A stretch of DNA of 64,000 nt from a virus (IMGVR_UViG_3300009784_000001:54418-118417), one strand, 5' to 3'; counted from the first letter of the stretch, positions 7,240 to 60,247 are shown. A program made the numbers and translations. The notes: generated by a model from the letters alone, not told the origin.

Positions 7240-7598
7240 TTCGTTTTGCTTCTGATTCTATCAAATTCAACAATTTCATTAAAATTATTACCATCAATAT
7301 GTGGATATTTTATTTTTAAAACATCAATATCAACCATCAAATTATTCATTTCTTCATCAGAAAAGGAAGAAATTAATGCCAAATGTTTACTATCCCATTT
7401 CTTATAAAATTCATAAGCAGCACTATTTTTTGGCAATAACCTTTCCTGTGCCTGACCTCCCCCTGCATAATCAGTCCTTCTGTAATTTAATTGATTAGCA
7501 ACTGTGGAAAAATATTCGTCACTATTTTTTCTGTAAGACTGCCCTCCTACTTCCACTTCAAAAAATATCCTTTTCTTTACTCTAAAACTTACTGTCAT
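7236..7598 (-). CDS. hypothetical protein (120 aa)
   Basis: Track ORF. Promoter at 7635-7695 lies upstream. Confidence 0.5.
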   Translation of the reverse strand: MTVSFRVKKRIFFEVEVGGQSYRKNSDEYFSTVANQLNYRRTDYAGGGQAQERLLPKNSAAYEFYKKWDSKHLALISSFSDEEMNNLMVDIDVLKIKYPHIDGNNFNEIVEFDRIRSKTN

Positions 7599-7634
7599 AT
7601 TACCTAATTTTTATTTGTTTATTTTGTTAAGCAA

Positions 7635-7695
7635 TACAAAGATACAAAATCTTTTCCAATCCACAAAAGAAATAAAGTTAATAAAAGTTAAAAAT
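7635..7695 (-). promoter_or_regulatory. early promoter (same class)
   Basis: Plus strand shows tacaaagata at 7635-7644 and aagttaataaaagttaaaaa at 7676-7695. Confidence 0.6.
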
Positions 7696-7767
7696 TTTTC
7701 ATATTATATAATATTAAAATTTATTCAAAATTTATTATAGATATTTTAACATTCTTAAGAACTACAT

Positions 7768-7808
7768 AAAAAAACCGACCAAAAATAAACATTTCGATCG
7801 GCGGTTTT
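7768..7808 (-). terminator. putative intrinsic terminator
   Basis: On the minus-strand RNA, CCGAUC...GGUCGG forms a 6-bp stem followed by UUUUUUU (the plus-strand A-run at 7768-7775). It closes the ORF-free region. Confidence 0.45.
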
Positions 7809-8312
7809 ATCCTTTTATGATATAACTTTGCCTTCTACTACCTCATTATACTGGCAACAAAATTATAGTGCGACTCATAAAAGTTTCTTGGAATAAAACA
7901 GGAGGTTTATTATCTTTTCTTATCCCTCAAATTGCAGACGTTTCTTTATGATCCCGCCAAAAACACTTCACTTAATTTGCAATTACCTAATCAAATGATG
8001 GTTGTCAATTTCTTTTAATTGTTATGGATATTAATCATTATCATATGTGCCAAACTTTCAATACCCAATTAAAATTTCCCTTAATCTTCAACCAAATTCA
8101 AACACTGCCATCAGGTAGGCAACTAACAACCTTTGAACTTACAAGGCGTTCCAACTCTTTTATTTCACGACTTGGACTAATCGTGCCTTATCCAAATTAA
8201 TAACCCATTTTGTAAAACCCTAAAAACAACCAATGGAAATTTCAAATTATGGACTAACCACTTGGAGTTTTTGTTAAAATAACTTTGAATAAATTTTTTG
8301 CGCTGGTGTAAA
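7776..8312 (-). ncRNA. candidate non-coding RNA of about 530 nt, class unknown
   Basis: No ORF longer than 14 codons on the minus strand. A canonical early promoter (8320-8376) points into the region and a terminator sits at its far end. GC content is visibly higher than in the flanks, and there are local hairpins such as CACGAUUAGUCCAAGUCGUG. Confidence 0.35.
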
Positions 8313-8319
8313 ATCGTAA

Positions 8320-8376
8320 TACAAAGATATAATTTTATTTTTATATAACCAAACCTTTTATGTTAAAAATTCTTAC
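8320..8376 (-). promoter_or_regulatory. early-type promoter driving the ORF-free region
   Basis: Plus strand shows tacaaagata at 8320-8329 and tatgttaaaaattcttac at 8359-8376. The downstream side has no ORF. Confidence 0.55.
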
Positions 8377-29105: not shown

Positions 29106-29390
29106 TTATAATGTTAAAAAATCTAAACATTTTTGTATTACTTCAATTTTATTGTCATCTACTTCTTTTTCCCATATAACTAAAATATCATATCCTCTTT
29201 CTCTAATAGCCTCATGTTTTAATTTATCTTTTTTTCTAATTTCATTTATACTTAATTTATTATGAGGATTAATCCAATTTTCATTATATATCTCTGGATT
29301 TCCATGCCAATAATTTCCATTATATTCAATACATTTTTTATTCAAAGTATCTACAAAGTCATAAGAATATAAAATTTTATCTTTAGACAT
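29106..29390 (-). CDS. Vsr-like (very-short-patch-repair family, PD-(D/E)xK fold) endonuclease homolog
   Basis: IEYNGNYWHGNP...SINEIRKKDKLKHEAIRERGYDILVIWE aligns with Vsr FVDGCFWHGH...RDRRD...GWRVLIVWE. The same frame stays open upstream as far as 29525. Confidence 0.6.
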   Translation of the reverse strand: MSKDKILYSYDFVDTLNKKCIEYNGNYWHGNPEIYNENWINPHNKLSINEIRKKDKLKHEAIRERGYDILVIWEKEVDDNKIEVIQKCLDFLTL

Positions 29391-29517
29391 TACACAAAAT
29401 TCTTTTGTTAAAGGAGAAAAATATAAATGTTCTTTTCTATTTAATTGTTCATATAATTCTTTAAAAAAAATATTAGCTTTATTAGAAGCATAGGGAAAAT
29501 GTTTGGTGATGGTTAGA

Positions 29518-30744
29518 TTATTTTTTTAACTCTATCAAATATTTCATATCACATTGGTTTATATTATATACAACATATTCTGAATTAATTAAATCTGCTC
29601 CACCATGTGCATATACAGAATGAAAAGGTTTAATATTATTTTCATTAAAATTATAACATTCAGAAGTGTGTTTATATATATGCTTTTGATTTCCAAGGTT
29701 AACTCTAAACAAAGCCATATATGCCTTATTATCATTTCCATTTACCCAATATGAACCAGATAATGATGTATAACCAATTGATTTTCTTGCTTTATCAGCA
29801 AAATAAATCCCTTGTGAGCCAAACATTCCACCTGTTATAATAGCACCTGCTGGCCTAATAAGTAAACCACTTTGTAATAATGAAAACCAGTTTTGATTAC
29901 GACTACCATGAAAAAATAGTAATTCATTTTTAATATCCATTGAATTGAATTTTTCATCATATCTTTTTTGGGTTTGTTTATTGATTACTTTAAATATGTT
30001 CCCCATAAGATTGGATGAATCTCCCATTAAAGTTTTGATTGATTGAAGTATTTTTTTATCTTCAATATATTCAACAGTTAATCCTAATTGTTCCAACAAA
30101 TTTTGTTTATTGTTATTATTTTCATTTGTTTTTTCAACTTGAATTGTTGTAACTTGACCTGCTAATGTATCAAGCAATTTTTGTTCGTTATCAATTATCT
30201 TTTCTATTTCAGTTTTATTATTTGATTGAAATAAAAAATCTCGAACATCCCCCATTCTTCTTGGGATAGTTGTATATATTTCAAGTAATAATTTATTTAG
30301 TTCATTATAATTTACTTGATGCTTATAAGCAGATGTTAATTTATCAATTAGTTCTTGAGCAGTATCAATCATTTTTTGAGTTACACTGTTGGCTGATACT
30401 TTGTAGTTTTTTTGGATTGTTTTCTTTGCCCAAGATTGAAGTTCAGAGATAAGATTTTTAACTTTGATATTATCTGATATAAAAATATCTTTATTATTAT
30501 CTGATATAATAGGTTCTTCAACAGCAATTAAATCAGTAATATCTTTATATCCTTTTCGTATTTTTTCTTTATATTTTGATTCCCATTCATGGATGGGATA
30601 GGAGGTATATTGTTTGGAAGAATCCACTCTACCATATTCAACATCAATTTGATTAGTAGAAGTATTTTCAGTCATTTTGTAATATTTATTATGATTCCCC
30701 TTAATTCCTTCAACCAATACTAAATAAGCATATTTACTACTCAT
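29518..30744 (-). CDS. poly(ADP-ribose) polymerase-like ADP-ribosyltransferase (WGR domain plus PARP catalytic domain)
   Basis: The catalytic region FFHGSRNQNWFSLLQSGLLIRP...GGMFGSQGIYFADKARKS...YVVYNINQCDMKYLIELK aligns with PARP1 [22 protein letters not shown]...GYMFGKGIYFAD..SKS...EYIVYDIAQVNLKYLLKLK, including the H-Y-E triad. The N-terminus is WGR-like. Confidence 0.8.
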   Translation of the reverse strand: MSSKYAYLVLVEGIKGNHNKYYKMTENTSTNQIDVEYGRVDSSKQYTSYPIHEWESKYKEKIRKGYKDITDLIAVEEPIISDNNKDIFISDNIKVKNLISELQSWAKKTIQKNYKVSANSVTQKMIDTAQELIDKLTSAYKHQVNYNELNKLLLEIYTTIPRRMGDVRDFLFQSNNKTEIEKIIDNEQKLLDTLAGQVTTIQVEKTNENNNNKQNLLEQLGLTVEYIEDKKILQSIKTLMGDSSNLMGNIFKVINKQTQKRYDEKFNSMDIKNELLFFHGSRNQNWFSLLQSGLLIRPAGAIITGGMFGSQGIYFADKARKSIGYTSLSGSYWVNGNDNKAYMALFRVNLGNQKHIYKHTSECYNFNENNIKPFHSVYAHGGADLINSEYVVYNINQCDMKYLIELKK

Positions 30745-30827
30745 AATTCTTTTATTTTTAGCCCATTAAATGATTTGTTTAATTTCATATTATAAAGTAA
30801 AACACGATATGTTATATTATATTTTTA

Positions 30828-31004
30828 TTAATAAACATTAAAATCTGTTCTTTCGCTTCTATGATCCATTATTTTTCCTTTTGCATAAACACAACGAGTT
30901 TGGCAATTATTACAACTATCTTCTTTTATAAATGCTTGCATCCATCTGCAATAATATTTATATTGTAGTGCATTTTTTCTTCTTTCATCCCAATAATCAT
31001 CCAT
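30828..31004 (-). CDS. small Cys-rich protein (58 aa), not in the ORF track
   Basis: The ATG at 31004 abuts the Nudix stop. Sequence MDDYWDERRKNALQYKYYCRWMQAFIKEDSCNNCQTRCVYAKGKIMDHRSERTDFNVY has a C..C...C..C spacing. Confidence 0.35.
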   Translation of the reverse strand: MDDYWDERRKNALQYKYYCRWMQAFIKEDSCNNCQTRCVYAKGKIMDHRSERTDFNVY

Positions 31005-31571
31005 TTAAGAAAATGTTTTAATTAAATCATCATGGTTAAAAGCCCATTCTCGATTATCTATATTTGAATAATCATAATCAAATTCATGACCCATAAGAAT
31101 TAAAGGGATTTCTATCCATTCAACTTTTTCTATTTCTTTTCCTTCATTTTCAGGAAATTTAGTTCTTGTTAATCTTGGATCATCTTTTGAATTAATTTCA
31201 TTATATTCTCCACGAAAAGCATTATAAGAACTAGGGCTATAAGTAAATAATAAAGAAACATTTTGTCTATTTGAAGAAGGGTTTGAATCTATTCTTGCTA
31301 ATTCCCATTTATTTGAATCAGTTTTAATACCAGTTTCTTCATCTACTTCTCTTGTAATAGCTTCTTCAACAGTTTCATTAAAATCAAGATAGCCACAAGG
31401 TAAACTCCATTTTCCAGCTTCATCTTGACCATCATTTCCTCTTTTAACTGCCAGAAGAAAAAGTGAACTTGTTTTTTCTTCAATGAATGAAAAGATACCC
31501 ACGACCGCTACTGATCGTGAGTACCATAATGTTTCTCCTGTTTTAGGATGTTTAAATGAAAAATTATTCAT
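31005..31571 (-). CDS. Nudix hydrolase
   Basis: Nudix box GKWSLPCGYLDFNETVEEAITREVDEETGI, matching GX5EX7REUXEEXGU. Confidence 0.8.
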   Translation of the reverse strand: MNNFSFKHPKTGETLWYSRSVAVVGIFSFIEEKTSSLFLLAVKRGNDGQDEAGKWSLPCGYLDFNETVEEAITREVDEETGIKTDSNKWELARIDSNPSSNRQNVSLLFTYSPSSYNAFRGEYNEINSKDDPRLTRTKFPENEGKEIEKVEWIEIPLILMGHEFDYDYSNIDNREWAFNHDDLIKTFS

Positions 31572-31574
31572 GAT

Positions 31575-32417
31575 TTATTTTTTTAGAGACCAAATAGGAG
31601 AAACATTAGCATTTTGTCCGCCAATTAAGAAGTCAATATTAAAGTTACCATTTTTAGCTTTAGCCATTTCAATTAACTCTTTGTTGATTTCAAGTGAACG
31701 TAATTGAATAAATTCTTTTACTGTTAGGTTTAGATTGACCATATATGCTTTATCAGCTAATGCACGAGATTTTTCTGCACCTTGTCTTGAATCTTCACTT
31801 TCTTTACGTCTATCTTGGGTTTGTTTAGCTTGGATGGCTGCTCCTGTTTTGTTCATTTCTTCTATTACATCCGCATTAGGAATTGCTCTACTTGTTATTA
31901 CTTCTGCTAATTTAACTGGTAAGCCTTTTTCCTTTAATAAAGCTGTTATATTTGTAAAAATATTATTATTAATAGTATCATAAACTTGTCTATCAGAAGT
32001 TAAACGAAACATATCATATTTGCATACTTCATTTCTAATTTCTTGACGAGCTGGTTGTTGAACGTTATTTGCATACCAATTAGGACCAAAGTGTAATACG
32101 ATTTGAGGAGATTGCCCTTTTTCCATTTGTAAAATTAAGAAACAATCAAGACTGATTGGAGTATTATTACTTGTGATCATATCTTCAAAAGACTCTTTGT
32201 ATTGAACAGGAGAAGTTTTGAAAACGTCCAAATGAGTTGACCATGCATAATATTCACTTCCTTGTGTCATAGGAGAGGTATCTACACCCCCTGTACCAAA
32301 AATATAAGGTTGTTTTGTAAACACGCCTTCCTCATCCCCTTTCAAAGTGGCACGACTACAGCCGCTTAATAGAACAATGGATATAAAAATCCACATAAAT
32401 TTAATTACATTTTTCAT
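31575..32417 (-). CDS. lipoprotein with an SPFH/band-7-like C-terminal region (putative)
   Basis: Lipobox LLSGCS after the signal peptide. The C-terminal half is coiled-coil, rich in Ala, Glu and Gln. Confidence 0.45.
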   Translation of the reverse strand: MKNVIKFMWIFISIVLLSGCSRATLKGDEEGVFTKQPYIFGTGGVDTSPMTQGSEYYAWSTHLDVFKTSPVQYKESFEDMITSNNTPISLDCFLILQMEKGQSPQIVLHFGPNWYANNVQQPARQEIRNEVCKYDMFRLTSDRQVYDTINNNIFTNITALLKEKGLPVKLAEVITSRAIPNADVIEEMNKTGAAIQAKQTQDRRKESEDSRQGAEKSRALADKAYMVNLNLTVKEFIQLRSLEINKELIEMAKAKNGNFNIDFLIGGQNANVSPIWSLKK

Positions 32418-32439
32418 TTTTTTTTAATTTAATATTATT

Positions 32440-32931
32440 TTATAACTCAAAAGCTGAATCATCTTCTCCAAGTAATATTTTTAATGCTTCCATATATTTT
32501 GTAGTCCTTACTAAATCTTCCATTGTTAATTCTTTTGGTTTCATTCTAGTAAGATTTGCATTATCCATAATATCTGCTATTTTCACTCTGATAGCAATGC
32601 TATTTGTACTTTCTTTTATATGTTTAATATATTCACCATAATAAGCATTATCTTTTGTCAAAATCCTTATAGCATCTATACATTCATCAGGAATACCTTC
32701 ATTTTTCAAATCCAATAAAGTAACATTACATTCTTCTATCACATCATGTAATAGAGCAACTATTTTTTCATTGTCATTATCTAATGACATTGCTACTCTT
32801 AATGGATGTTGATAATAATCTATACCATTTTTATCTGTTTGCCCATCATGATATTTTTTAGATAACTCAAGGGACAAACAGACTAATGGATTAGTAGTAT
32901 TTAATAATATTTCACAATTATCATTTCCCAT
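32440..32931 (-). CDS. RelA/SpoT-family HD-domain hydrolase (small alarmone hydrolase-like)
   Basis: Diagnostic motifs are YYQHPLRVA, IVALLHDVIEE and KIADIMDNANLTRM. Confidence 0.7.
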   Translation of the reverse strand: MGNDNCEILLNTTNPLVCLSLELSKKYHDGQTDKNGIDYYQHPLRVAMSLDNDNEKIVALLHDVIEECNVTLLDLKNEGIPDECIDAIRILTKDNAYYGEYIKHIKESTNSIAIRVKIADIMDNANLTRMKPKELTMEDLVRTTKYMEALKILLGEDDSAFEL

Positions 32932-32942
32932 TTTTATTTTTT

Positions 32943-33455
32943 TTAGAAAGCTAAACCAAGACTTAAACCTAAACCTATTTTATTGATATTCATTTGTTCA
33001 AAGGTACGTTCCCAATAAACACAAGGTTCAACAAAAATATCTTTTGTTACAAACAAAGTGTAGCCACAATCAATTCTTAAACCATTTTCATAAGAAGTAT
33101 TTTTAGCAGTAAAACCTTCATACCATGCTCCTAAAAACCAGGAGACATTGGGGAAATACTGCCTAATTCCTACAGTATAGTTAAATGTGTTATAAGTATC
33201 ATTATTGTCAGCTTTTTCTAACCCCCACCCTAATCCTGCATTAAGGCAAAAATCATTAAAAAGAAAATAATAACCACTAAATCCAAGATCAAGAGAATTA
33301 ATTTTATAATTACCAAGACCTGTTGATAAATCAAAATTACTAAAATTTGCTACAATTCCCTTTGCACCTTGTGGGCAACATTTGGTACATTCTTGAGCAG
33401 ATATTGTCCAGCTCAACATTAATAAACTAAGTACTACTAAAACCTTTTTTCTCAT
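32943..33455 (-). CDS. outer-membrane beta-barrel protein (putative)
   Basis: Signal peptide MRKKVLVVLSLLMLSWTISAQ, alternating aromatic beta-strands, and a C-terminal LGLSLGLAF ending in Phe. Confidence 0.45.
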   Translation of the reverse strand: MRKKVLVVLSLLMLSWTISAQECTKCCPQGAKGIVANFSNFDLSTGLGNYKINSLDLGFSGYYFLFNDFCLNAGLGWGLEKADNNDTYNTFNYTVGIRQYFPNVSWFLGAWYEGFTAKNTSYENGLRIDCGYTLFVTKDIFVEPCVYWERTFEQMNINKIGLGLSLGLAF

Positions 33456-33460
33456 TTTTT

Positions 33461-34114
33461 TTAATTTATAATTTTTGTATCAAAATATTTCAAGTTTTCC
33501 GAATTTGGATGATCACCAAATTCAGTTTCTACACGCCAGACATAATATCGAGCTTGATTAGGAGTTAAATCCTTTTTTTCTAAATCTGCGCCACCTATAA
33601 CATATACTTTTTCTTCATTTCCCAAATCGCAAGATACAGTATATAGCATATCATCAAGTTGATCAAGAGTACTAACTGTTAATAATATTTCTTCTCCTGA
33701 TTTATCTACTATTACTTCAAACATATCAGAGCTTATTTGAGTGATATCAACAACTTTTCCTTTAACTGATTTATTGAAGAATGTATTTTTTACATTACTA
33801 TTATTTAATAAAAAGTCTTGTGCTGCTGAAGGGCAAGCTCTTGGTCTATCAAGAATACCACCATCATCAATTTCAATATCTATTGAATAATTGAAATATA
33901 CAAAATGGTCATCTTCAAATCTTCTATGTGTATTGGAATTCCATTCTAAATAATTTTCTCTGATAATGGTAGAAACTTCTTTCTGGGTAACCCAGAAACC
34001 TTGGTCTCTTAATTCTTCTTTTACTTCTAAAGTAGTTGTTTCTTCATTGGTATCAAGCAATGATTCAAACACTTCTTTAACATCATACTCTGTAACATAG
34101 TTTCTTTTTTCCAT
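33461..34114 (-). CDS. hypothetical protein (217 aa)
   Basis: Track ORF. A promoter box lies at about 34150. Confidence 0.5.
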   Translation of the reverse strand: MEKRNYVTEYDVKEVFESLLDTNEETTTLEVKEELRDQGFWVTQKEVSTIIRENYLEWNSNTHRRFEDDHFVYFNYSIDIEIDDGGILDRPRACPSAAQDFLLNNSNVKNTFFNKSVKGKVVDITQISSDMFEVIVDKSGEEILLTVSTLDQLDDMLYTVSCDLGNEEKVYVIGGADLEKKDLTPNQARYYVWRVETEFGDHPNSENLKYFDTKIIN

Positions 34115-38571: not shown

Positions 38572-39534
38572 TTACTTGTTTAATGGAATTAAATTCAACA
38601 TATATTTTTTTCCTTCTTCACTGTTCATCAGTGGAGCATCATCAATAATCCATTTATTTCTAATAATATCTTCTTTTTGATAATCAAAAAATGTTTCTAT
38701 CAATGGTGTCTTAATAACTGTAGAATATGGTAATAACACTGAATACTGATTATTTATAGTTTGAAAATCTGTATGAATTTCTTTGCCATTAACAAATTTC
38801 TTTTTTGTAATTAATCTACCTCTTTTTTGACCAATAGGATAATCATTCCAATTGATATTTTTCTCTTGAAATAGTAATTCTTGCATTTGATCAGTATTTT
38901 TCTTATGTAATTCTTTTGGTGAAAAATAAGTTTGAGCAGCCATTGAAATGCTATTTCTTACACAATCTAACTGGCGAAATAAGAACCAGGAAAAAGCATC
39001 ATTTTGTGTGGGTACAACAAATGCCCTACAATCAAACTCAGCTAACTTGAAATCTCTGATTTGATCATAAATTGTTAAATCCTTATCAACTTCAACACCA
39101 TCTATTGTTTGTTTATATTGTTCTCCAAACTCATCACAAAATCCTTCACATTTTTGATTTTCCAATTTTCTAACCATTCTTAATTGATTGAATTTGGAAG
39201 CTGCCATTGAAGCTGCAAGAGAGTTAATCTTACATAATCTGTAATCAAACCATGCTTGTTTTTCTCTTGTATCATAATCACAAACAAAAATACTTATTTC
39301 ATCAGATTGAACAAATGCAAATAATGCTCCTGAAATATTGGAACATAGATATTTTGCAGTTTCATTCATATCTTCGATGAAACCTGTATCAAATGGTTTT
39401 TCAAGTTTATTCTTAAATTGATGGGAAAAGGAACGACCATCTAACACCATAATAACATATGATTTTACTGGTAGTTTATAATCACATAAACCTCTATAGT
39501 ATAACATTCTATCTTCTAATTTATTCCATTTCAT
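38572..39534 (-). CDS. Thg1-like protein (tRNA-His guanylyltransferase / 3'-5' nucleotidyltransferase family)
   Basis: LPVKSYVIMVLDGRSFSHQF...EKPFD...SDEISIFV aligns with yeast Thg1 LPQCYIVVRIDGKKFHEF...AKPNDE...ESDEYSFIL. There is a C-terminal extension of about 80 aa. Confidence 0.8.
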   Translation of the reverse strand: MKWNKLEDRMLYYRGLCDYKLPVKSYVIMVLDGRSFSHQFKNKLEKPFDTGFIEDMNETAKYLCSNISGALFAFVQSDEISIFVCDYDTREKQAWFDYRLCKINSLAASMAASKFNQLRMVRKLENQKCEGFCDEFGEQYKQTIDGVEVDKDLTIYDQIRDFKLAEFDCRAFVVPTQNDAFSWFLFRQLDCVRNSISMAAQTYFSPKELHKKNTDQMQELLFQEKNINWNDYPIGQKRGRLITKKKFVNGKEIHTDFQTINNQYSVLLPYSTVIKTPLIETFFDYQKEDIIRNKWIIDDAPLMNSEEGKKYMLNLIPLNK

Positions 39535-40474
39535 ATTTTGTCCAACCTCTATACTTTTTAATCTTATTATTTTTTAATTTTAACAAATAATCATATCCCA
39601 AATCATTTTCCTTTGCAAAGCCCTTCAAATCCAAAATGTGATGAATTTTTTCATCAGGAGATTTTAAATCACATTCACCTCTATTTTTTTTTACATATAT
39701 ACCATTCTTTTTACAATAGTACAAAACTAATCCACTATCCAAATTTAATTTTAAACCTATATTATTTACATTTTCACCATCCTTGTGCATTTCTAATATA
39801 GTTGGGATTAAATATTTATGATCTTTGAAACCATTTTTTTCAATATTTTTATTTTTATATGGATATACAACCCATTTATGCTTATAATCTTCAAAAGGAC
39901 ATTTGCCAATATCTTTTAAAAATTTTTCAACATTTCTTCTTGGAATATTAATAATAGGTTTTTTTTCATTAAATCCTATTTTTGCTTCATATTCTTTTAA
40001 TTGTTTAATTAATATGTTTTCTATCTCTTCACAACAAAAAGAATTTGTTGATAATTTTATATTATTTGTTACACATTCATTTTCTCTATTATCTATTGAA
40101 CCATCTCCTAGATACCATATCAAATTACATAATTTATCAAGTTTTAAATCTAAGGGAACCATTTTTTTATCATTAGGATACCATTTTTCTTTCAATTCAT
40201 ACCAGAATAAATTTGATTTTGCTGATAATCTAAATTCTTTATAAATTTTATTTGTTCTTTTATCATAATATTCATAACTTTGAGGATGATTATCACACCA
40301 TACATATTCTGGTAATAATTTTTTGATAAACATTATAAATTCTAAAGAAGAACTGTTTAAGAAAAAATTAAAACTTTTTTTATTAATTCCTCCATCACTT
40401 AATAATAAACCATTTATAACTGACATTTCTTTTTCATTAAAAGAAAATTTTTCATATTTCCATTTTTTATTCAT
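39521..40474 (-). CDS. LAGLIDADG homing endonuclease (double-motif, free-standing)
   Basis: Motif 1 INGLLLSDGGI and motif 2 LIWYLGDGSI sit about 100 aa apart. The ORF overlaps the Thg1-like start by 14 nt. Confidence 0.7.
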   Translation of the reverse strand: MNKKWKYEKFSFNEKEMSVINGLLLSDGGINKKSFNFFLNSSSLEFIMFIKKLLPEYVWCDNHPQSYEYYDKRTNKIYKEFRLSAKSNLFWYELKEKWYPNDKKMVPLDLKLDKLCNLIWYLGDGSIDNRENECVTNNIKLSTNSFCCEEIENILIKQLKEYEAKIGFNEKKPIINIPRRNVEKFLKDIGKCPFEDYKHKWVVYPYKNKNIEKNGFKDHKYLIPTILEMHKDGENVNNIGLKLNLDSGLVLYYCKKNGIYVKKNRGECDLKSPDEKIHHILDLKGFAKENDLGYDYLLKLKNNKIKKYRGWTKYEME

Positions 40475-52864: not shown

Positions 52865-55800
52865 TTATGAACAAGCTGACCATCCGCAATTAGTACATTT
52901 TTTACATCCATTTTCATATATAATAGAATTTGTTAATCCACATTCAGGACAAGTTTCATTAATATTACCTTCTTTTTTCTCTAAATATCTATTTAAGATT
53001 CTTGCACAAACACTGCTGAATGAAGTAATACTATCATCATACTTTTTGAAGGTTTTAATAATATATTCAAGTCCTATTCCATGCCTTAATTCTAATGAAG
53101 TACGAGTACAATGCCTTTTTTCTTCTTCACTGTTAAATTCTGTTAAGTTAGGAATTGTGATAAATTCTGAATCAAATTTATATAAGTTCTTTTTTATTTT
53201 TGTTATTGTACCTCTATGTTCTTTTATTTTATTAAAGGAGGTTTTTAATTCAATATTTTCAAGTGTTGGGATGAAACAAAATAATTCATAAGGCATTTCG
53301 CAATATAAACCAATGATAATAATATAATTTTGACCTTTATATTTTATTTTATAAAAATCACTAGTTAATGTTTTTGGACGTTTAGGAGCATTATGTGTTG
53401 CAAAGTCTTTACAAGGATCGTCATTTTTTTTATCTGTTGCCACTAAAACACCACTTCGAGAACCTTCTCTATATATTGTACAACCTTTTAAGTTATATTT
53501 GAATACATTTTTATAAATTTCATCTACTTCTTTAATAGTTACATTTTGAGGAAGATTAATTGTAGATGAAATGGAAGAAGTTATAAATTCTTGTATTAAT
53601 CCTTGTATTTTAACTCTTTCAACCCAATTAATATCATTTGCAGTTTGTTTATAGTATGGTGATTCTTCATAAACTCTTTGCCAATCTGTATTTTCCCACC
53701 CATTATATTCATTTAAACCTCTACTAGCAAGAAAATATTCTTTTAATTTTGGATGAACAACAACAAATTCCTTAAATCCTTTACCATTTTCATCAATGTA
53801 ATCGGCAGTTTCTCCTGGGGTTAATACTCTTCTTCTTACATAAAATGGTAAAAATAATGGTTCAATACCAGAAGTAGTTTGAGTCATTACTGATACTGTG
53901 CCAGTTGGGGCTAATGTACTAATTCCCGAATTTCTTCTTCCATATTTTAGCATTCTTATAGTTTGAGAAGGAAATTCATCAATAATAAATTGATACCATT
54001 CATTATTTCCTATTAAATCAATATATGTATTTTCACTATCTGAAACTTCATGAAACTCTTTATTTTTATCCCATAATGGAAATGTACCTTTCAAAATAGC
54101 TAAATCAATAGAAGCATCCAATTCATTTTCAAGTTTTAATTTCATCACCTTTTGAAGTATGTCAAAATCTCCATAAGGCTTATTTAACGCTGCAAACATA
54201 TCACCTAAAGCTGTGTAACCAGTTCCTGTTCTTCTACCTAAAGAACCTATATTTTTTATTTCTTCCCACAATTTAATTTCAAGTTTTTTACTCTTTGAAC
54301 TTTTTGATAAAAGTAATAAAATTCTATCAACTGCTTCAATTTCTAAGTCAACAATTAAATCAGTCATAACTTGAATTTCATAAAAAATCTCTTTCATCAA
54401 ATCCTTGTCAATAGAACTATTTTCTGTAAAGGGGGAAGATACCATTGAGTAAAGATTAGTAGCCATTAAACGACATGAATCTTTTGGAGCCAAACTTAAT
54501 TCACCACATGGATTTGTAGATACGGCTTTGAGTTCTTTATATATTGATGTGGGGTCATAATTTATCATTCTATCCCAATTTAAAAATCCTGGTTCGGCAT
54601 GATTTCTATTGGAATAAACAAATTCATCCCATATTTCTTTTGCTTTTACCATTTTTATATAACCTTTATGAGTACCATCAATATTAACCAGATTGTATAA
54701 GTGATTATATAAAAAGTAATCTTTTTTAATATGTTCTATATTATATTTCAAAACTTCTTCATCAATTTTTAAATCACAAGGAAATCTCAATATATAATCT
54801 TCATCATTTTCAAGTGCTTGCATAAATTCATCATTAAATTTAATAGATATGTTAGCATTTGTTATAGCATTTGTATTTTGTTTACATTTAATAAAATCTA
54901 ATATATCAGGATGATTGATATCCATTGAAATCATCATAGCCATTTTACGACTTGATTGCCCTATAATTTTGCCTATTACATCATATATTTGCATCCAATC
55001 AACAGGACCAGAAGAAATTTTTGCTGAATTATTAACAGCAGCATTATTGGGTCTTAAATTTGAAATGTCAATACCACAATTATGAATGTTAACAAACCCA
55101 AAATTACTACCACAATAATAATTATTATTATCTTCAACAACTATATCTATATATTTATATTTTATATTATTATCTTCTATTATAGATTTTACTTGAGTTC
55201 TCGATAGTATTTCAAATAATTTAGAATTATTAATTAAACCAATTTTATTAAACAAATATAATGCAGCTTTTCCACATGATCTTTCTTTATTTAAATTAAT
55301 TCTGTTAGCTTTAAATAAATTATATTCTCTTTTATTAAGTCCCAAAGAAGATATTTTTACATTATTTATTAATTCTATCTCTTCATTAAGAAGTTTTATT
55401 TTCCCAGATTGATGCCTATAACTTCTTTCTTTCATCCTATTTAATTTATCTGGATGAATTACATAATTCATTATTTCAGTATATATATCAGAATCTTTAT
55501 AGATATGTAATCTATATAAATTATTTTCATTATTTTTTTTAGGATATCTAATATTTACACTATATCTTTGACCAATTGAAGATAAATAAAATGATATATC
55601 ATCAATAGCATTTTTTGAAGTTATATCAATATCAATTTTACCTTCCTTTCTAATATGACCATCAGAATCAATTAAGCCAGCAAGAAATGGTATCCACAAA
55701 TTATTTTTATTTATAAAATTTGGAACACTCCAAGTATATGTTTTTTTATTAATTTGATTATCTAAAAAATTATCTATAATATAAACACCATCTATACTTG

Positions 55801-56851
55801 AAACTCTAAATTCCCAACATTCGCTTTTATAAGATTTTCTTTTAACTTTTGTAACTAATGATATATTTTCATTATTAATCATTTTTGAAAAAATACTCCT
55901 ATATTTTTCAATAATCTCTTTATTGTTTCCAATAATACTAAAAACACCAGCATAATATCCATATTGTTTTGGAATAGTTAGTCTAGCTGAACCATCACCC
56001 ATATGACAACCAATCCACCAACCAATTTCATCATAATTATTTAAAATATGCTTATATGATTTACCAGAAATAGTTTTATTAAATGTTTTGTCTAATAAAC
56101 CGCTATTATAATTTTCATATCCATATTCCTTTTCTTTTAATACTAATAATGGATGTTTTTTTGATGTTTTTAAATTAATACCATTATTATATTGTATATC
56201 TATTTGTTCATTTTGTAAAACTTCTGTATAAAATTTATCTGTAATTTTTTTCCATTCATCAATTTTAGCATTAATATTAAAACTTAAAACCATATCACCA
56301 ATATTTACATCTTTTATTGGTATAATACCTTTATCTTTCACTAAAATTTTTGAATTTTCTTCAACACAACCCCCACGGCGTTTTCCTACTTGCCCCATTT
56401 CCATAACAGAAATTAGAATATCCTCAATAGAATCTTCTACTGCATCAACTACAAAACAATTGGAAATTGAAGTAGGAGAATTTGTTCCTAAGTTTTCCAT
56501 TATTGAACCACCTGGAATTATATATCTATATCCTTTCAAATAAAAATAAAAATGTTCCTCTAATTCTTCTAATGTTGCATTTTTTAATTTATCAAAACGT
56601 TTTTTTCCAGTATCAGATAATAATTCATATTTGGTTTTATCTATTTTTTGAAAATAATTAAATTCTATTCTTGCAAATTCTTTAGCATATCTTCTATGAC
56701 TATCATCAGGAGTTAATTCACATAAATTTTTATTTTCATCTTTTAAACAATACTTTTTAATCCATGTAGTTGTAGCTAATTCATCATTGTTAAAGTACTT
56801 GAGGGTGGCATTGTAAACCTCATCATAACTATAATTTTTATTTTCGATCAT
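52865..56851 (-). CDS. ribonucleotide reductase large subunit, class II-like, interrupted by an intein
   Basis: Active-site STNPCGELSL, finger loop SGPVDWM and a C-terminal Cys cluster. There is no ATP cone. The track start at 56857 is TTG; the ATG is at 56851. Confidence 0.85.
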   Translation of the reverse strand: MIENKNYSYDEVYNATLKYFNNDELATTTWIKKYCLKDENKNLCELTPDDSHRRYAKEFARIEFNYFQKIDKTKYELLSDTGKKRFDKLKNATLEELEEHFYFYLKGYRYIIPGGSIMENLGTNSPTSISNCFVVDAVEDSIEDILISVMEMGQVGKRRGGCVEENSKILVKDKGIIPIKDVNIGDMVLSFNINAKIDEWKKITDKFYTEVLQNEQIDIQYNNGINLKTSKKHPLLVLKEKEYGYENYNSGLLDKTFNKTISGKSYKHILNNYDEIGWWIGCHMGDGSARLTIPKQYGYYAGVFSIIGNNKEIIEKYRSIFSKMINNENISLVTKVKRKSYKSECWEFRVSSIDGVYIIDNFLDNQINKKTYTWSVPNFINKNNLWIPFLAGLIDSDGHIRKEGKIDIDITSKNAIDDISFYLSSIGQRYSVNIRYPKKNNENNLYRLHIYKDSDIYTEIMNYVIHPDKLNRMKERSYRHQSGKIKLLNEEIELINNVKISSLGLNKREYNLFKANRINLNKERSCGKAALYLFNKIGLINNSKLFEILSRTQVKSIIEDNNIKYKYIDIVVEDNNNYYCGSNFGFVNIHNCGIDISNLRPNNAAVNNSAKISSGPVDWMQIYDVIGKIIGQSSRKMAMMISMDINHPDILDFIKCKQNTNAITNANISIKFNDEFMQALENDEDYILRFPCDLKIDEEVLKYNIEHIKKDYFLYNHLYNLVNIDGTHKGYIKMVKAKEIWDEFVYSNRNHAEPGFLNWDRMINYDPTSIYKELKAVSTNPCGELSLAPKDSCRLMATNLYSMVSSPFTENSSIDKDLMKEIFYEIQVMTDLIVDLEIEAVDRILLLLSKSSKSKKLEIKLWEEIKNIGSLGRRTGTGYTALGDMFAALNKPYGDFDILQKVMKLKLENELDASIDLAILKGTFPLWDKNKEFHEVSDSENTYIDLIGNNEWYQFIIDEFPSQTIRMLKYGRRNSGISTLAPTGTVSVMTQTTSGIEPLFLPFYVRRRVLTPGETADYIDENGKGFKEFVVVHPKLKEYFLASRGLNEYNGWENTDWQRVYEESPYYKQTANDINWVERVKIQGLIQEFITSSISSTINLPQNVTIKEVDEIYKNVFKYNLKGCTIYREGSRSGVLVATDKKNDDPCKDFATHNAPKRPKTLTSDFYKIKYKGQNYIIIIGLYCEMPYELFCFIPTLENIELKTSFNKIKEHRGTITKIKKNLYKFDSEFITIPNLTEFNSEEEKRHCTRTSLELRHGIGLEYIIKTFKKYDDSITSFSSVCARILNRYLEKKEGNINETCPECGLTNSIIYENGCKKCTNCGWSACS
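55079..56368 (-). mobile_element. intein (430 aa) with a double-motif LAGLIDADG homing endonuclease, inside the RNR gene
   Basis: Begins CVEENSKILVKDKG and ends VNIHN followed by a +1 Cys. HE motifs are GWWIGCHMGDGS and FLAGLIDSDGHI. Codons at both junctions were checked on the sequence: Cys is tgt at 56368-56366 and Asn is aat at 55081-55079. Confidence 0.85.
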
Positions 56852-56985
56852 AAACAATATTTGTAAATTTTATTTTTTGGTAAGAAATAAATACTATCAA
56901 ATGTACCAAAATAATCTGATTTTTTTTAATTTTATTTTAAAACTCTGTTAAACAAAAGTATATTTTTTAAAATAAAAACACAACA

Positions 56986-59617: not shown

Positions 59618-60247
59618 TTAACCAACATTTTCAAGTGATTGTTCCATAAATGAATCAGCATCAGCCATACTTGCAGAGCATCTGTATTTTGTTGCAACAT
59701 CACAAACATAATGTAATGTTGAGCTAGTATTACTACCATAAGCTGCCATGTGTCTAATACCCATATCAACTCCATCAGTACATTTTGATAAATCATCACC
59801 AAGATAAATAAATGACCAGTTATATACAGTTTCTTGATGTTCAATCATTTCTTTTATTTGTGATAATGAAAACTCAGAAGAAGAATTTTCTTCTCCATCA
59901 GTAATTATAACAACAAGTACTTTTGAAGGTCTATTTTCTTCATTGATTTTAGATAATTCTTCACCTGTTTCATTAATAGCTTTTCCTATTGCATCAAAAA
60001 GTGCCGTTCCACCAGCAGGATTATAATCTCTTTCAGTTATAGTTTTTAATTCATCTTTAGGCTGATTAACCCATATTCTTCTAACATCATTGCTGAATGT
60101 ATATAAAGATGCCATTATATCTCCATCAGGCAAATTCTTTTGAGCTTCTACAAACTCGTTAAAACTACCAATAACATCTTTTTTTCGTGGAGACATTGAA
60201 CCACTTTCATCTATTACAAATGTAATTGCACAAAACTTTTCTTTCAT
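59618..60247 (-). CDS. von Willebrand factor A (VWA) domain protein
   Basis: MIDAS motif VIDESGSM at the start of a Rossmann-like alpha/beta pattern. Confidence 0.6.
   Translation of the reverse strand: MKEKFCAITFVIDESGSMSPRKKDVIGSFNEFVEAQKNLPDGDIMASLYTFSNDVRRIWVNQPKDELKTITERDYNPAGGTALFDAIGKAINETGEELSKINEENRPSKVLVVIITDGEENSSSEFSLSQIKEMIEHQETVYNWSFIYLGDDLSKCTDGVDMGIRHMAAYGSNTSSTLHYVCDVATKYRCSASMADADSFMEQSLENVG

Follow-up and report, generated by a model that had tools for sequence, protein, structure and literature searches.

What a PARP does in a phage, and whether it acts together with the genes that lie beside it, is the question raised by a locus on a 64,000-nucleotide stretch of viral DNA (the window). 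Here a 408-aa PARP-like ORF lies close to three other ORFs, and a first-pass annotation, made from the sequence alone, had joined a Vsr-like nuclease, the PARP and a Nudix hydrolase into a "previously undescribed NAD+/ADP-ribose module". An ORF listing of the window places all four ORFs where that annotation had put them, on the minus strand. The overall explanation judged probable is a PARP of a known family with WGR, helical and ART domains, carried by a jumbo phage, regulated by DNA breaks and serving a repair-type role, with a winged-helix-like partner, a remnant nuclease nearby and a Nudix hydrolase that is not coupled to it. The PARP gene and its domains are laid out as follows:

29518..30744, minus strand: PARP gene, 408 aa, arranged as WGR, linker, helical regulatory domain and ART catalytic domain
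30526..30744, minus strand: WGR domain, aa 1-73, with N19-K20-x-Y22, Y37-G38-R39 and K64-G65-Y66; four strands and a helix in the model
30088..30468, minus strand: predicted helical (PARP_reg/HD-like) domain, aa 93-219, all-helical in the model and preceded by a disordered linker, aa 74-92
29521..30081, minus strand: ART catalytic domain, aa 222-408, with H279-G-S, G312-I-Y314-F-A-D, K321-S-x-x-Y325 and E389-Y-V-V-Y; motif columns invariant, aligning to PARP1/PARP2

Evidence that the 408-aa ORF is a genuine PARP came from sequence profiles, a family alignment and a structural model. The Pfam PARP model PF00644 matches residues 245-407 at 85.9 bits, well above its cutoff of 26.7, and matches all 31 family members in a family-wide Pfam scan, while PHROG 23333 matches the protein over its full length (E = 5.6e-57). 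In an alignment of the 31 members, which are diverse, mostly viral and 45-64% identical, the His-Tyr-Glu triad (H279, Y314 and E389) is unvarying, as are K321, S322 and Y325. PARP1/2 are the PDB matches of the family profile (E ~1e-23, with the PARP2 alignment starting at profile position 13), and in HMMER alignments their HGS, GIYFAD, KSxxY and EYIVY motifs line up with the catalytic residues of the window PARP. The AlphaFold (AF2) model is confident (pLDDT 84.9), and Foldseek returned the WGR-CAT region of PARP1/2 as its best structural match (E = 1e-20); the top 12 matches are all WGR-containing PARP1/2 chains, 11 of them in complexes with DNA breaks or DNA oligonucleotides. These data confirm the PARP catalytic core with an intact His-Tyr-Glu triad that had been read from the sequence, and the ORF is a member of the known bacterial and phage family of PARPs with WGR, helical and ART domains. 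Its domain architecture and family membership, the integrity of its H-Y-E and NAD+-binding residues and its gene neighbourhoods are established.

The proposed N-terminal WGR-like module also stands, in a divergent form. The window PARP alone scores 11.3 bits against the Pfam WGR model, below the cutoff of 22, and neither WGR nor PARP_reg is called by single-sequence Pfam or NCBIfam searches, so that detection took scans of the whole family and a profile of the N-terminus alone. The Pfam WGR model matches 24 of the 31 relatives (best E = 1.6e-4), and a profile of the N-terminal ~74 residues alone, searched against 177,635 PDB sequences, has the WGR domains of PARP3 and PARP2 as its sole matches (E = 0.005-0.4, with 2eoc at E = 0.005). 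Foldseek agrees, aligning ~470 columns for WGR-containing chains versus ~365 for catalytic-only chains. In the window PARP, Tyr stands in place of the Trp of "WGR" ("YGR"); across the family, position 37 is Tyr, Phe or Trp, followed by a constant G38-R39. For the region between WGR and ART, the Pfam PARP_reg model PF02877 gives weak matches to 3 of the 31 members, the best at E = 0.058; a helical domain that Pfam does not match is likewise reported for bacterial PARPs (PMC5966428). Despite the weak PF02877 matches, a helical regulatory domain is predicted both by the model, in which linker residues 76-84 fall below pLDDT 50, and by the family profile, which from position ~113 aligns to residues ~37-250 of PARP1 catalytic fragments, starting inside their helical domain.

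This architecture is minimal and PARP2/PARP3-like, as in the Herpetosiphon and C. difficile PARPs. Bacterial PARPs (from Herpetosiphon aurantiacus, Clostridioides difficile CD160, Fibrella, Fibrisoma, Spirosoma and Microscilla) share with the window PARP the WGR, helical and ART domains, the H-Y-E triad and the lack of zinc fingers and BRCT; the window copy differs from them in being phage-encoded, in reading "YGR" for "WGR", and in having no PARG or macrodomain seen within the 64-kb window. Human PARP2/PARP3 and the WGR-CAT core of PARP1 are the best sequence and fold matches, with NNKxY, xGR, HGS, GIYFAD, KSxxY and EY(I/V)VY all aligning, but the window PARP is only ~22% identical to them, its WGR is far shorter (~73 aa), and an N-terminal extension, zinc finger, BRCT and any context of HPF1 or histones are all missing. 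An H-Y-E triad is no guarantee of polymer synthesis, since PARP3 is a mono-transferase. DNA-break-dependent activation and ADP-ribose synthesis have been demonstrated for the Herpetosiphon and C. difficile homologs only (PMC8120803); the Herpetosiphon PARP, which is built from the same domains, depends on DNA and synthesises long PAR chains (PMC4245714, PMC8120803). No biochemistry of any phage PARP was found in the literature searched.

In the mechanism that this architecture suggests, the WGR would bind DNA nicks or ends, and DNA binding would release autoinhibition by the helical domain. The ART domain would then move ADP-ribose from NAD+ onto the PARP itself and onto DNA-associated proteins, or possibly onto DNA termini, and may build ADP-ribose polymers; PARP1-3 are reported to ADP-ribosylate DNA termini that carry a phosphate. 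The most likely role would be in phage DNA replication, repair and end-processing.

That the PARP is encoded by a phage, as first proposed, is borne out by tail-fibre and Peptidase_S74 matches in the window and by its closest relatives, which are IMG/VR contigs of 220-380 kb. A cellular contig was considered, one homolog being labelled "Candidatus Dojkabacteria", and was rejected on this evidence together with the phage-typical nucleotide-metabolism genes and the dense single-stranded gene array. The carrier is probably a jumbo phage of ~360 kb with a host among the Bacteroidota. Megablast with 24 kb of the window matched none of 50,697 phage records, indicating that there is no close reference genome, and no tRNA or Rfam family was detected in the window. 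Promoter and terminator scans around the locus stayed at or below shuffle expectation, with a lone terminator-like site inside the Nudix coding region. The surroundings of the PARP gene are an early-type region of auxiliary and nucleotide-metabolism genes, and adjacency of genes in a long same-strand phage array is weak evidence in either direction.

Both the distribution of the family and published lists contradict the view of PARPs as a great rarity among bacteria and phages. In total, 2,943 homologs of the window PARP were found; the family occurs in 255 IMG/VR viral contigs, in 16 GenBank phage records (several annotated as PARP) among the 50,697, and in 96 stretches of species-representative genomes, mostly of Bacteroidota and including cultured Spirosoma, Fibrella, Larkinella and Fibrisoma. 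Phage PARPs were listed already in papers of 2014, 2021 and 2022 (PMC4245714, PMC7824862, PMC9503650), and the literature on the family also includes PMC8120803. Full-length homologs that are 24-31% identical to the window PARP and belong to PHROG 23333 are found in Cellulophaga phage phi4:1 (gp031), Xanthomonas phage XacN1 (ORF414, BBA65562.1), Xoo-sp13 and Klebsiella phage 05F01; annotated phage PARPs of this kind are cited in PMC4245714 and PMC7824862. The family is catalogued in Pfam, PHROGs and several reviews, and the window gene is one further member, sitting in a separate clade (53-63% identity) that carries the winged-helix-like partner.

Bacteroidota PARPs are common and are full-length homologs of the window PARP at 35-44% identity, and Perina et al. 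suggested that viral PARPs were gained from hosts (PMC4245714). These observations would fit an inactive passenger, newly taken from a Bacteroidota host and without a role in the phage. Such a passenger is extremely improbable given that the catalytic and WGR residues are invariant across the 31 aligned members at their level of divergence, indicating purifying selection, that the gene recurs on so many viral contigs, and that the partner gene has been co-inherited.

The proposed module draws on the genes on either side of the PARP:

29106..29492, minus strand: homing-endonuclease-like 3' remnant, comprising a 94-aa ORF (29106-29390) and 34 homologous upstream codons without a start codon
30828..31004, minus strand: Cys-rich ORF, 58 aa with four Cys, no family match; its start codon abuts the Nudix stop codon
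31005..31571, minus strand: Nudix hydrolase, 188 aa, with Nudix box G60-I82 and X-loop proline P98

According to the module model, the Vsr-like nuclease would nick DNA, the PARP would sense the breaks and make ADP-ribose or PAR, and the Nudix enzyme would hydrolyse ADP-ribose, the three forming one NAD+/ADPr unit. The genes do lie near each other on the same strand. If they formed a unit, the components should recur together, and they do not: within ±5-6 kb of PARP, a Nudix-box ORF is absent from all of 80 viral loci and all of 80 genome loci, and the four annotated relatives that are closest, as well as three cultured phages, have none near PARP either. No record among the 50,697 phage records holds both families, and homologs of the Nudix family are found in Lak megaphages that lack PARP. 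A homolog of the nuclease lies beside PARP in just one other phage, represented by L004 and L005, and the nuclease, the Cys-rich ORF and the Nudix gene are all absent in the closest relatives and the cultured phages. The Cys-rich ORF is an orphan, with no Pfam, PHROG or NCBIfam match and no homolog in 80 related loci or beside Nudix homologs.

The nuclease itself proved to be different from what had been proposed. The 94-aa ORF scores 21.4 bits against the Vsr model TIGR00632 (cutoff 97.85), matching profile positions 46-119 only, and 16.7 against DUF559 (cutoff 20.6); Vsr-family membership was rejected on these scores and on the truncation of the gene. The region aligns to a 333-aa ORF at L004:7321-8322 with 55% identity over 126 aa (L004 residues 202-327), and frame translation revealed 34 homologous codons upstream of the first start codon, with ~200 N-terminal codons missing. 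An intact free-standing homing endonuclease with a Vsr-like domain was likewise rejected: the C-terminal domain is there, but the absence of the N-terminal ~200 residues and the homologous codons ahead of the first start mark the ORF as a remnant. Its PHROG matches fall on the C-terminal parts of longer homing endonucleases (PHROG 22677 / 3339 / 12131 type). The likeness to Vsr lies in the core motif, "YDF…IEYNGNYWHGN" in the 94-aa ORF and "PD…FVDGCFWHGH" in Vsr, and the ORF lacks the N-terminal third of Vsr. The catalytic domain of I-Bth0305I-type homing endonucleases (PDB 3r3p) shares this motif as "IEVNGVYW"; compared with both enzymes, the ORF is the C-terminal domain of a homing-endonuclease-like protein of ~333 aa whose 5' part is deleted here. 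A phmmer search of the 94-aa ORF against the PDB returned nothing significant (best, the I-Bth0305I mobile-intron protein at E = 1.3), an AlphaFold model made without an alignment was unusable (pLDDT 50.7), and no paralog was found among the window's own homing endonucleases. Judged from its sequence, the ORF is a decayed homing-endonuclease gene, and its product is expected to have no nicking activity or a non-specific one.

Identification of the Nudix hydrolase was correct: Pfam NUDIX PF00293 scores 49.2 bits (cutoff 21.1), and the Nudix box, G60-YLDFN-E66-TVEEAIT-REVDEETGI82, is a perfect fit to GX5EX7REUXEEXGU. P98, 16 residues past the box, is kept in three homologs, and an X-loop proline ~16-17 residues after the box is a motif of ADP-ribose diphosphatase (ADP-ribose pyrophosphatase) Nudix enzymes (PMC5389931). 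The NCBIfam equivalogs (including MutT, RppH, NudC, NudE and NadM-Nudix) are all far under their cutoffs, with weak similarity to the Nudix domain of NadM-type enzymes. The enzyme may hydrolyse ADP-ribose-type nucleotides, with no specific coupling to the PARP, and its gene is an independently distributed one of a kind common in jumbo phages. The conserved X-loop proline and the remnant's retained "D…IEYNGNYWHG" core motif and internal ATG are features that speak for a nuclease–PARP–Nudix unit. Set against them are the loss of the 5' part of the nuclease gene, the orphan Cys-rich ORF, the location of the Nudix gene inside a block interposed between a conserved gene pair, and the distribution described above. 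The module model fails because its components are not conserved across relatives; it is largely refuted, and a functional unit of this kind is very improbable. The nuclease and Nudix genes are chance neighbours of the PARP.

The conserved pair consists of the PARP and a gene further upstream, with the interposed genes between them:

33461..34114, minus strand: PARP-partner protein, 217 aa, the N-terminal ~65 aa forming a conserved winged-helix-like domain with "TTTLEVKxxLR"
31575-32417, minus strand: SPFH/Band_7 lipoprotein, with Pfam and PHROG matches
32440-32931, minus strand: HD_4 RelA/SpoT-like hydrolase, with Pfam and PHROG matches
32943-33455, minus strand: OMP-like 170-aa ORF, the last of the interposed genes at 31575..33455

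The partner protein was recognised by an HMM built from bacterial PARP-adjacent ORFs (55.7 bits) and by an HMM of the A3 alignment (77 bits). Its domain adjoins PARP in 58 of 80 bacterial genome loci; among seven close phage relatives, it is directly upstream of PARP in six and one gene away in the seventh. In P0231 it is fused to a standalone WGR. The domain is weakly similar to the N-terminal winged helix of ArgR, and the similarities behind the winged-helix call are all below threshold. The window PARP and the partner gene do not adjoin; they are five genes apart, with a block of ~2.7 kb, including the Nudix gene, in between. An SPFH gene lies downstream of PARP in the relatives L002, L003, L017 and L082, and the window HD_4 protein showed no detectable orthology to the HD_4 gene product found repeatedly near PARP in a different clade (BLASTP E = 0.013). 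These data suggest that the functional partner of the PARP would most likely be the small winged-helix-like protein and not the adjacent genes.

Other phage clades have different neighbourhoods. Among 80 viral loci, an RNA ligase lies near PARP in 42, an ATP-dependent DNA ligase in 36 and RlaP in 22. The PARP neighbours in annotated phages are unlike those of the window: a CCA-adding enzyme and a DNA ligase, the latter one gene from PARP, in the cultured phi4:1; VWA in XacN1; and radical SAM and NrdD in 05F01. The 64-kb window of the 360-kb genome turned up no ligase for DNA or RNA, no macrodomain, no PARG and no ARH, so that nothing in the window points to a repair context or to reversible PAR turnover. 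A bolder and rather doubtful proposal is that the PARP and the 33461-34114 protein form an undescribed two-gene, DNA-break-responsive ADP-ribosylation system common to Bacteroidota and the jumbo phages that infect them, in which the partner would be a DNA-targeting cofactor or the main substrate, and that other phage clades instead couple this PARP to genes for end repair (DNA ligase, RNA ligase and RlaP). If true, this system would represent the equivalent, in prokaryotes and viruses, of the PARP-dependent break repair of eukaryotes.

A different function is suggested by T4 Alt, ModA and ModB, which are phage-encoded NAD+-dependent ARTs, as is the window PARP. The T4 enzymes differ: they are mono-ARTs of the R-S-E clade with neither a WGR nor a helical domain, and they act on RNA polymerase and translation factors of the host (PMC9503650). 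A host-takeover transferase of this type would modify RNA polymerase or translation factors without needing DNA breaks. Iyer et al. proposed such a role for phage PARPs (PMC7824862), host macromolecules are regarded as the targets of viral ARTs from many families (PMC9503650), and the early-type surroundings of the PARP gene are consistent with it. Host takeover is nevertheless unlikely: the WGR and helical domains are strictly kept in phage and cellular members, which argues for nucleic-acid-dependent regulation; free-living Bacteroidota carry this family, together with its partner, on their chromosomes, and takeover makes no sense in such cells; other phage clades have ligase and repair neighbourhoods; and no fusion or linkage of PARP to virion or packaging genes was seen in the compared loci.

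Nudix, Macro and NADAR domains of phages have also been argued to act against soluble ADPr signals (PMC9503650). By extension, the PARP and the Nudix enzyme might separately blunt NAD-depleting or ADPr-signalling immunity, for example by modifying defence proteins or degrading signals, and the ADPRase-like features and NadM-type likeness of the Nudix protein would be compatible with this. Counter-defence is quite improbable, given that a PARP uses up NAD+ and would make depletion worse, that no NAD-salvage genes were found in the 64-kb window, that PARP and Nudix do not co-occur elsewhere, and that the cellular homologs, which have the same partner, point to a role of a housekeeping or repair type.

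For the break-regulated, repair-type PARP favoured here, attention moves from accidental neighbours, the Nudix gene and the decayed nuclease, to two recurring associations. The first is with the winged-helix-like partner, which is conserved in free-living Bacteroidota and jumbo phages alike; the second is with DNA and RNA ligase neighbourhoods in other phage clades, including the genetically accessible phi4:1. Both lead to testable hypotheses on ADP-ribosylation in prokaryotic and viral DNA transactions. In 50 of the 80 viral loci, PARP is also abutted by a 237-aa ORF that has no Pfam match and no PDB sequence match; its sole match is PHROG 3668, "hydrolase".

The four ORFs on which the first-pass annotation rested are all present on the minus strand (ORF listing):

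29106-29390, minus strand, 94-aa ORF
29518-30744, minus strand, 408-aa ORF (PARP)
30828-31004, minus strand, 58-aa ORF with four Cys
31005-31571, minus strand, 188-aa ORF (Nudix)

The reading of the 408-aa protein as a WGR-plus-catalytic PARP with an intact triad was correct, on catalytic-domain, WGR and structural evidence. Its catalytic domain reaches 85.9 bits on Pfam PF00644, for which the cutoff is 26.7. A single-sequence phmmer search of the PDB matched PARP2 and PARP1 at E ~1e-14, strengthened to E ~1e-23 with a 31-sequence family profile; in that alignment H279 (HGS), Y314 (GIYFAD), K321-S322, Y325 and E389 (EYVVY) are invariant. Single-sequence evidence for the WGR domain of the window protein is weak (Pfam WGR, 11.3 bits, E = 0.38). 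Pfam WGR is matched by 24 of 31 relatives (best E = 1.6e-4), and the family profile aligns with PARP2 WGR-CAT constructs from profile position 13 onward. Used as a profile, the first ~74 residues found eight PDB sequences at E ≤ 1, all of them PARP3 or PARP2 WGR domains (best match 2eoc, E = 0.005). Across the family the motif reads [Y/F/W]-G-R; the window protein has Tyr. An AlphaFold2 model built on the alignment (pLDDT 84.9) has a β-sheet-plus-helix WGR at residues 1-73 and an ART fold at 222-408; between them lie a linker with partial disorder (pLDDT <50 for residues 76-84) and a domain made entirely of helices (93-219). The best 12 Foldseek matches are WGR-containing PARP1/PARP2 chains (E down to 1.4e-20, ~470 aligned columns), 11 of them in complexes with DNA breaks or DNA oligonucleotides; chains of the catalytic fragment only rank lower (~365 aligned columns). 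These data establish the architecture, the conservation of catalytic and WGR residues, and a fold match to DNA-break-bound PARP1/2. By analogy with the established biology of PARP1-3 and the Herpetosiphon aurantiacus PARP (HaPARP), the WGR would bind nicks or ends and relieve autoinhibition by the helical domain, after which the ART domain would move ADP-ribose from NAD+. Judged by sequence, the product could be either polymer or monomer.

The window PARP is a further member of an already known family, and is neither rare nor new. It aligns with PHROG 23333 over its full length (E = 5.6e-57), and homologs are encoded by 16 GenBank phage records, with those of the Cellulophaga phi4:1 group, XacN1 and Xoo-sp13 annotated as poly(ADP-ribose) polymerase and a Klebsiella phage record annotated "ADP-ribosylation". 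The claim that PARP homologs are very rare in bacteria and phages is contradicted by 2,943 homologs at E ≤ 1e-5 in a 5.8-billion-protein collection, by 255 confirmed IMG/VR contigs, and by full-length relatives in 96 stretches of species-representative genomes, the majority from Bacteroidota (Saprospiraceae, Cytophagales; cultured genera Spirosoma, Fibrella, Larkinella, Fibrisoma and Flexithrix). It is also contradicted by earlier papers: Perina et al. 2014 (PMC4245714) catalogued the phi4:1 and Bacteroidetes PARPs, Iyer et al. 2021 (PMC7824862) reported PARPs in jumbo phages, and Iyer et al. 2022 (PMC9503650) listed PART/PARP with the commonest viral ART families. Bacterial WGR + helical + ART PARPs have been reviewed (PMC8120803, PMC5966428), including the DNA-dependent, PAR-making Herpetosiphon enzyme. 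No biochemical study of a phage PARP was found in the literature searched.

The three-gene nuclease–PARP–Nudix module proposed in the first-pass annotation is not supported, because the Nudix gene does not recur near PARP and the 94-aa ORF is a gene remnant. The neighbourhood comparison drew on 80 loci from viruses (±6 kb) and 80 from genomes (±5 kb), together with four contigs from the closest relatives (53-61% identity) that carry Pfam annotation, and three cultured phages. By tblastn, none of the 80 viral loci has a homolog of the Nudix, Cys-rich or HD protein, and a regular expression for the Nudix box found an ORF near PARP in 0/80 viral and 0/80 genome loci; the window alone has one. Gene order is ClpP–VWA–DUF5856–x–PARP, without Nudix, in the closest relatives, CCA-adding enzyme–PARP–x–DNA ligase in phi4:1, PARP–VWA in XacN1, and PARP–radical SAM–NrdD in Klebsiella phage 05F01. 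Full-length Nudix relatives come from 15 records of Prevotella Lak megaphages, one of a human-faecal phage, and one huge uncultured phage, and the PARP matches include none of these; no other window neighbour recurs in the flanks of three Nudix homologs. The Nudix box is perfect and the X-loop proline, of a kind associated with ADP-ribose diphosphatases (PMC5389931), is conserved, which makes an ADPr-type substrate plausible; no Nudix subfamily model came near threshold. Among jumbo phages, ~45% carry Nudix genes (PMC9503650).

The supposed Vsr-family endonuclease scores far under the thresholds of the Vsr and DUF559 profiles and is instead a truncated homing-endonuclease-like gene:

29106-29492, minus strand, homing-endonuclease-like gene remnant (homology to L004/L005:7321-8322)

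Its PHROG matches fall in the C-terminal parts of 350-600-aa homing endonucleases. In a 501-kb relative (loci L004/L005), a 333-aa ORF (7321-8322) directly downstream of PARP ends in the same domain, and its N-terminal region also matches homing-endonuclease PHROGs. Residues 202-327 of this protein are 55% identical to the window over 126 residues, with homology starting at 29492, 34 codons upstream of the 94-aa ORF's ATG. This 34-codon stretch has no ATG, GTG or TTG, and the frame is closed at 29526-29528, within the PARP 3' end. The 94-aa ORF is therefore the remaining 3' part of a longer gene, with ~200 N-terminal codons gone. Two phages, with PARPs at only 51% identity, have a homing-endonuclease-like gene directly downstream of PARP: the 501-kb phage keeps it whole (333 aa), and the window keeps only the C-terminal Vsr-like domain. 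Taken as a whole, the first-pass observation largely stands, with its protein identification; the rarity claim and the module do not.

A different neighbour is conserved. When ORFs were clustered without bias, 58 of the 80 genome loci (Bacteroidota) proved to have a same-strand ORF of ~90-104 aa directly downstream of PARP. Within the window, its HMM matches a single protein, encoded by the 217-aa ORF at 33461-34114 (minus strand), over residues 3-64; the score is 55.7 bits, and 77 bits when the refined HMM of the A3 domain is used. All seven available contexts of the window's own clade carry this partner domain: in L002, L003, L017, L082, L084 and L085 it forms the start of the next ORF upstream of PARP, and in L083 it lies one gene away. 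It is also found in L039, L046, L047, L063 and L070. Examples of ORFs with the domain are L102:6219-6479, L136:6157-6462, L017:5386-5985 and L082:4409-4996. The domain, of ~75 aa with consensus V..AA..L...NG.TTTLEVK..LR..GY.A.Q.DVS, is the most conserved neighbour of the PARP family. All 307 family members carry the annotation "hypothetical" and lack any Pfam domain. Their sole, weak similarity is to the ArgR N-terminal winged helix: ArgR supplies the best four of ten weak PDB matches (E = 0.06-0.3), and PF01316 matches 4 of 28 members under cutoff. One member (P0231) fuses the domain to a standalone WGR. No description of such a partner beside PARP was found in the literature searched, and this putative winged-helix-like protein appears to be a modestly novel by-product of the analysis.

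In the window, ~2.7 kb separates partner from PARP, an interval holding an OMP-like ORF, an HD_4 hydrolase, an SPFH lipoprotein, the Nudix gene and the Cys-rich ORF. Two genes syntenic with PARP in relatives are displaced:

31575-32417, minus strand, SPFH/Band_7 lipoprotein
59618-60247, minus strand, VWA-domain protein

SPFH lies downstream of PARP, on the other side, in L002, L003, L017 and L082. In L082-L085 VWA lies ~1 kb upstream of PARP, in XacN1 it is the next gene, and in the window it is 26 kb away. These displacements indicate local rearrangement, which makes the block with the Nudix gene look like a rearrangement of, or insertion into, the conserved partner–PARP pair. The HD_4 / RelA-SpoT-like protein (32440-32931, minus strand, 163 aa, PHROG 990) recalls small alarmone hydrolases. 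In one close relative (173-kb contig), an IS605 OrfB/TnpB (Cas12f-like) gene (L084:8946-10094) is present ~3 kb downstream of PARP.

A second synteny pattern was seen in the larger IMG/VR PARP clade, at ~43-45% identity (80 viral loci, L002-L081).

Genes syntenic with PARP in the larger clade
Rnl2-type RNA ligase, 42/80 loci
ATP-dependent DNA ligase, 36/80 loci
RlaP RNA-repair nucleotidyltransferase, 22/80 loci
HD_4 hydrolase ~4 kb upstream of PARP, 16/80 loci
Weak macrodomain directly upstream of PARP, 12/80 loci
237-aa ORF of PHROG 3668 ("hydrolase"), abutting the stop codon of PARP, 50/80 loci

Example neighbours are L025:4009-5049, L012:69-1466, L023:10091-11266 and L009:7284-7997. The PHROG 3668 ORF has no Pfam or PDB match, and orthology between the window HD_4 protein and the recurring viral one was not detectable (BLASTP E = 0.013). 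In cultured phage phi4:1 (L166, Cellulophaga phage phi4:1_13), PARP adjoins a CCA-adding enzyme gene and has a DNA ligase one gene away. PARP–ligase neighbourhoods were not described in the literature searched and likewise seem modestly novel. Because a DNA-binding-like partner recurs and ligases and end-repair enzymes occur in sister clades, we favour a role in DNA or nucleic-acid-end transactions rather than pure host takeover; ligase and eraser genes are both absent from the 64-kb window itself.

The G+C content of the window is ~26%, and its genes lie almost entirely on the minus strand. It has strongly negative GC skew throughout (1-64000), and no tRNA genes or Rfam matches in its 64 kb. 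The source is best read as a jumbo phage, because the parent contig is 359,962 bp and the closest PARP relatives lie on IMG/VR viral contigs of 220-380 kb. Signal peptides, the distribution of homologs and the presence of relatives of the Nudix in Prevotella phages point to a Bacteroidota host. Nucleotide-metabolism genes comprise RNR large subunit, thymidylate synthase, DHFR and dNMP kinase; the RNR gene (52865-56857, minus strand, 1,330 aa) has a LAGLIDADG/Hom_end intein-type insertion at residues ~390-458. The window also encodes several DNA methyltransferases, homing endonucleases, AAA/ClpB-like and VWA proteins, and tail-fibre and Peptidase_S74 proteins. A Thg1-like tRNA-His guanylyltransferase (3'-5' polymerase family; 38572-39534, minus strand) adjoins a LAGLIDADG_2 endonuclease (39521-40474, minus strand), and a PTH2 peptidyl-tRNA hydrolase is also encoded; Thg1 and PTH2 together suggest that the phage may maintain tRNA and translation functions.
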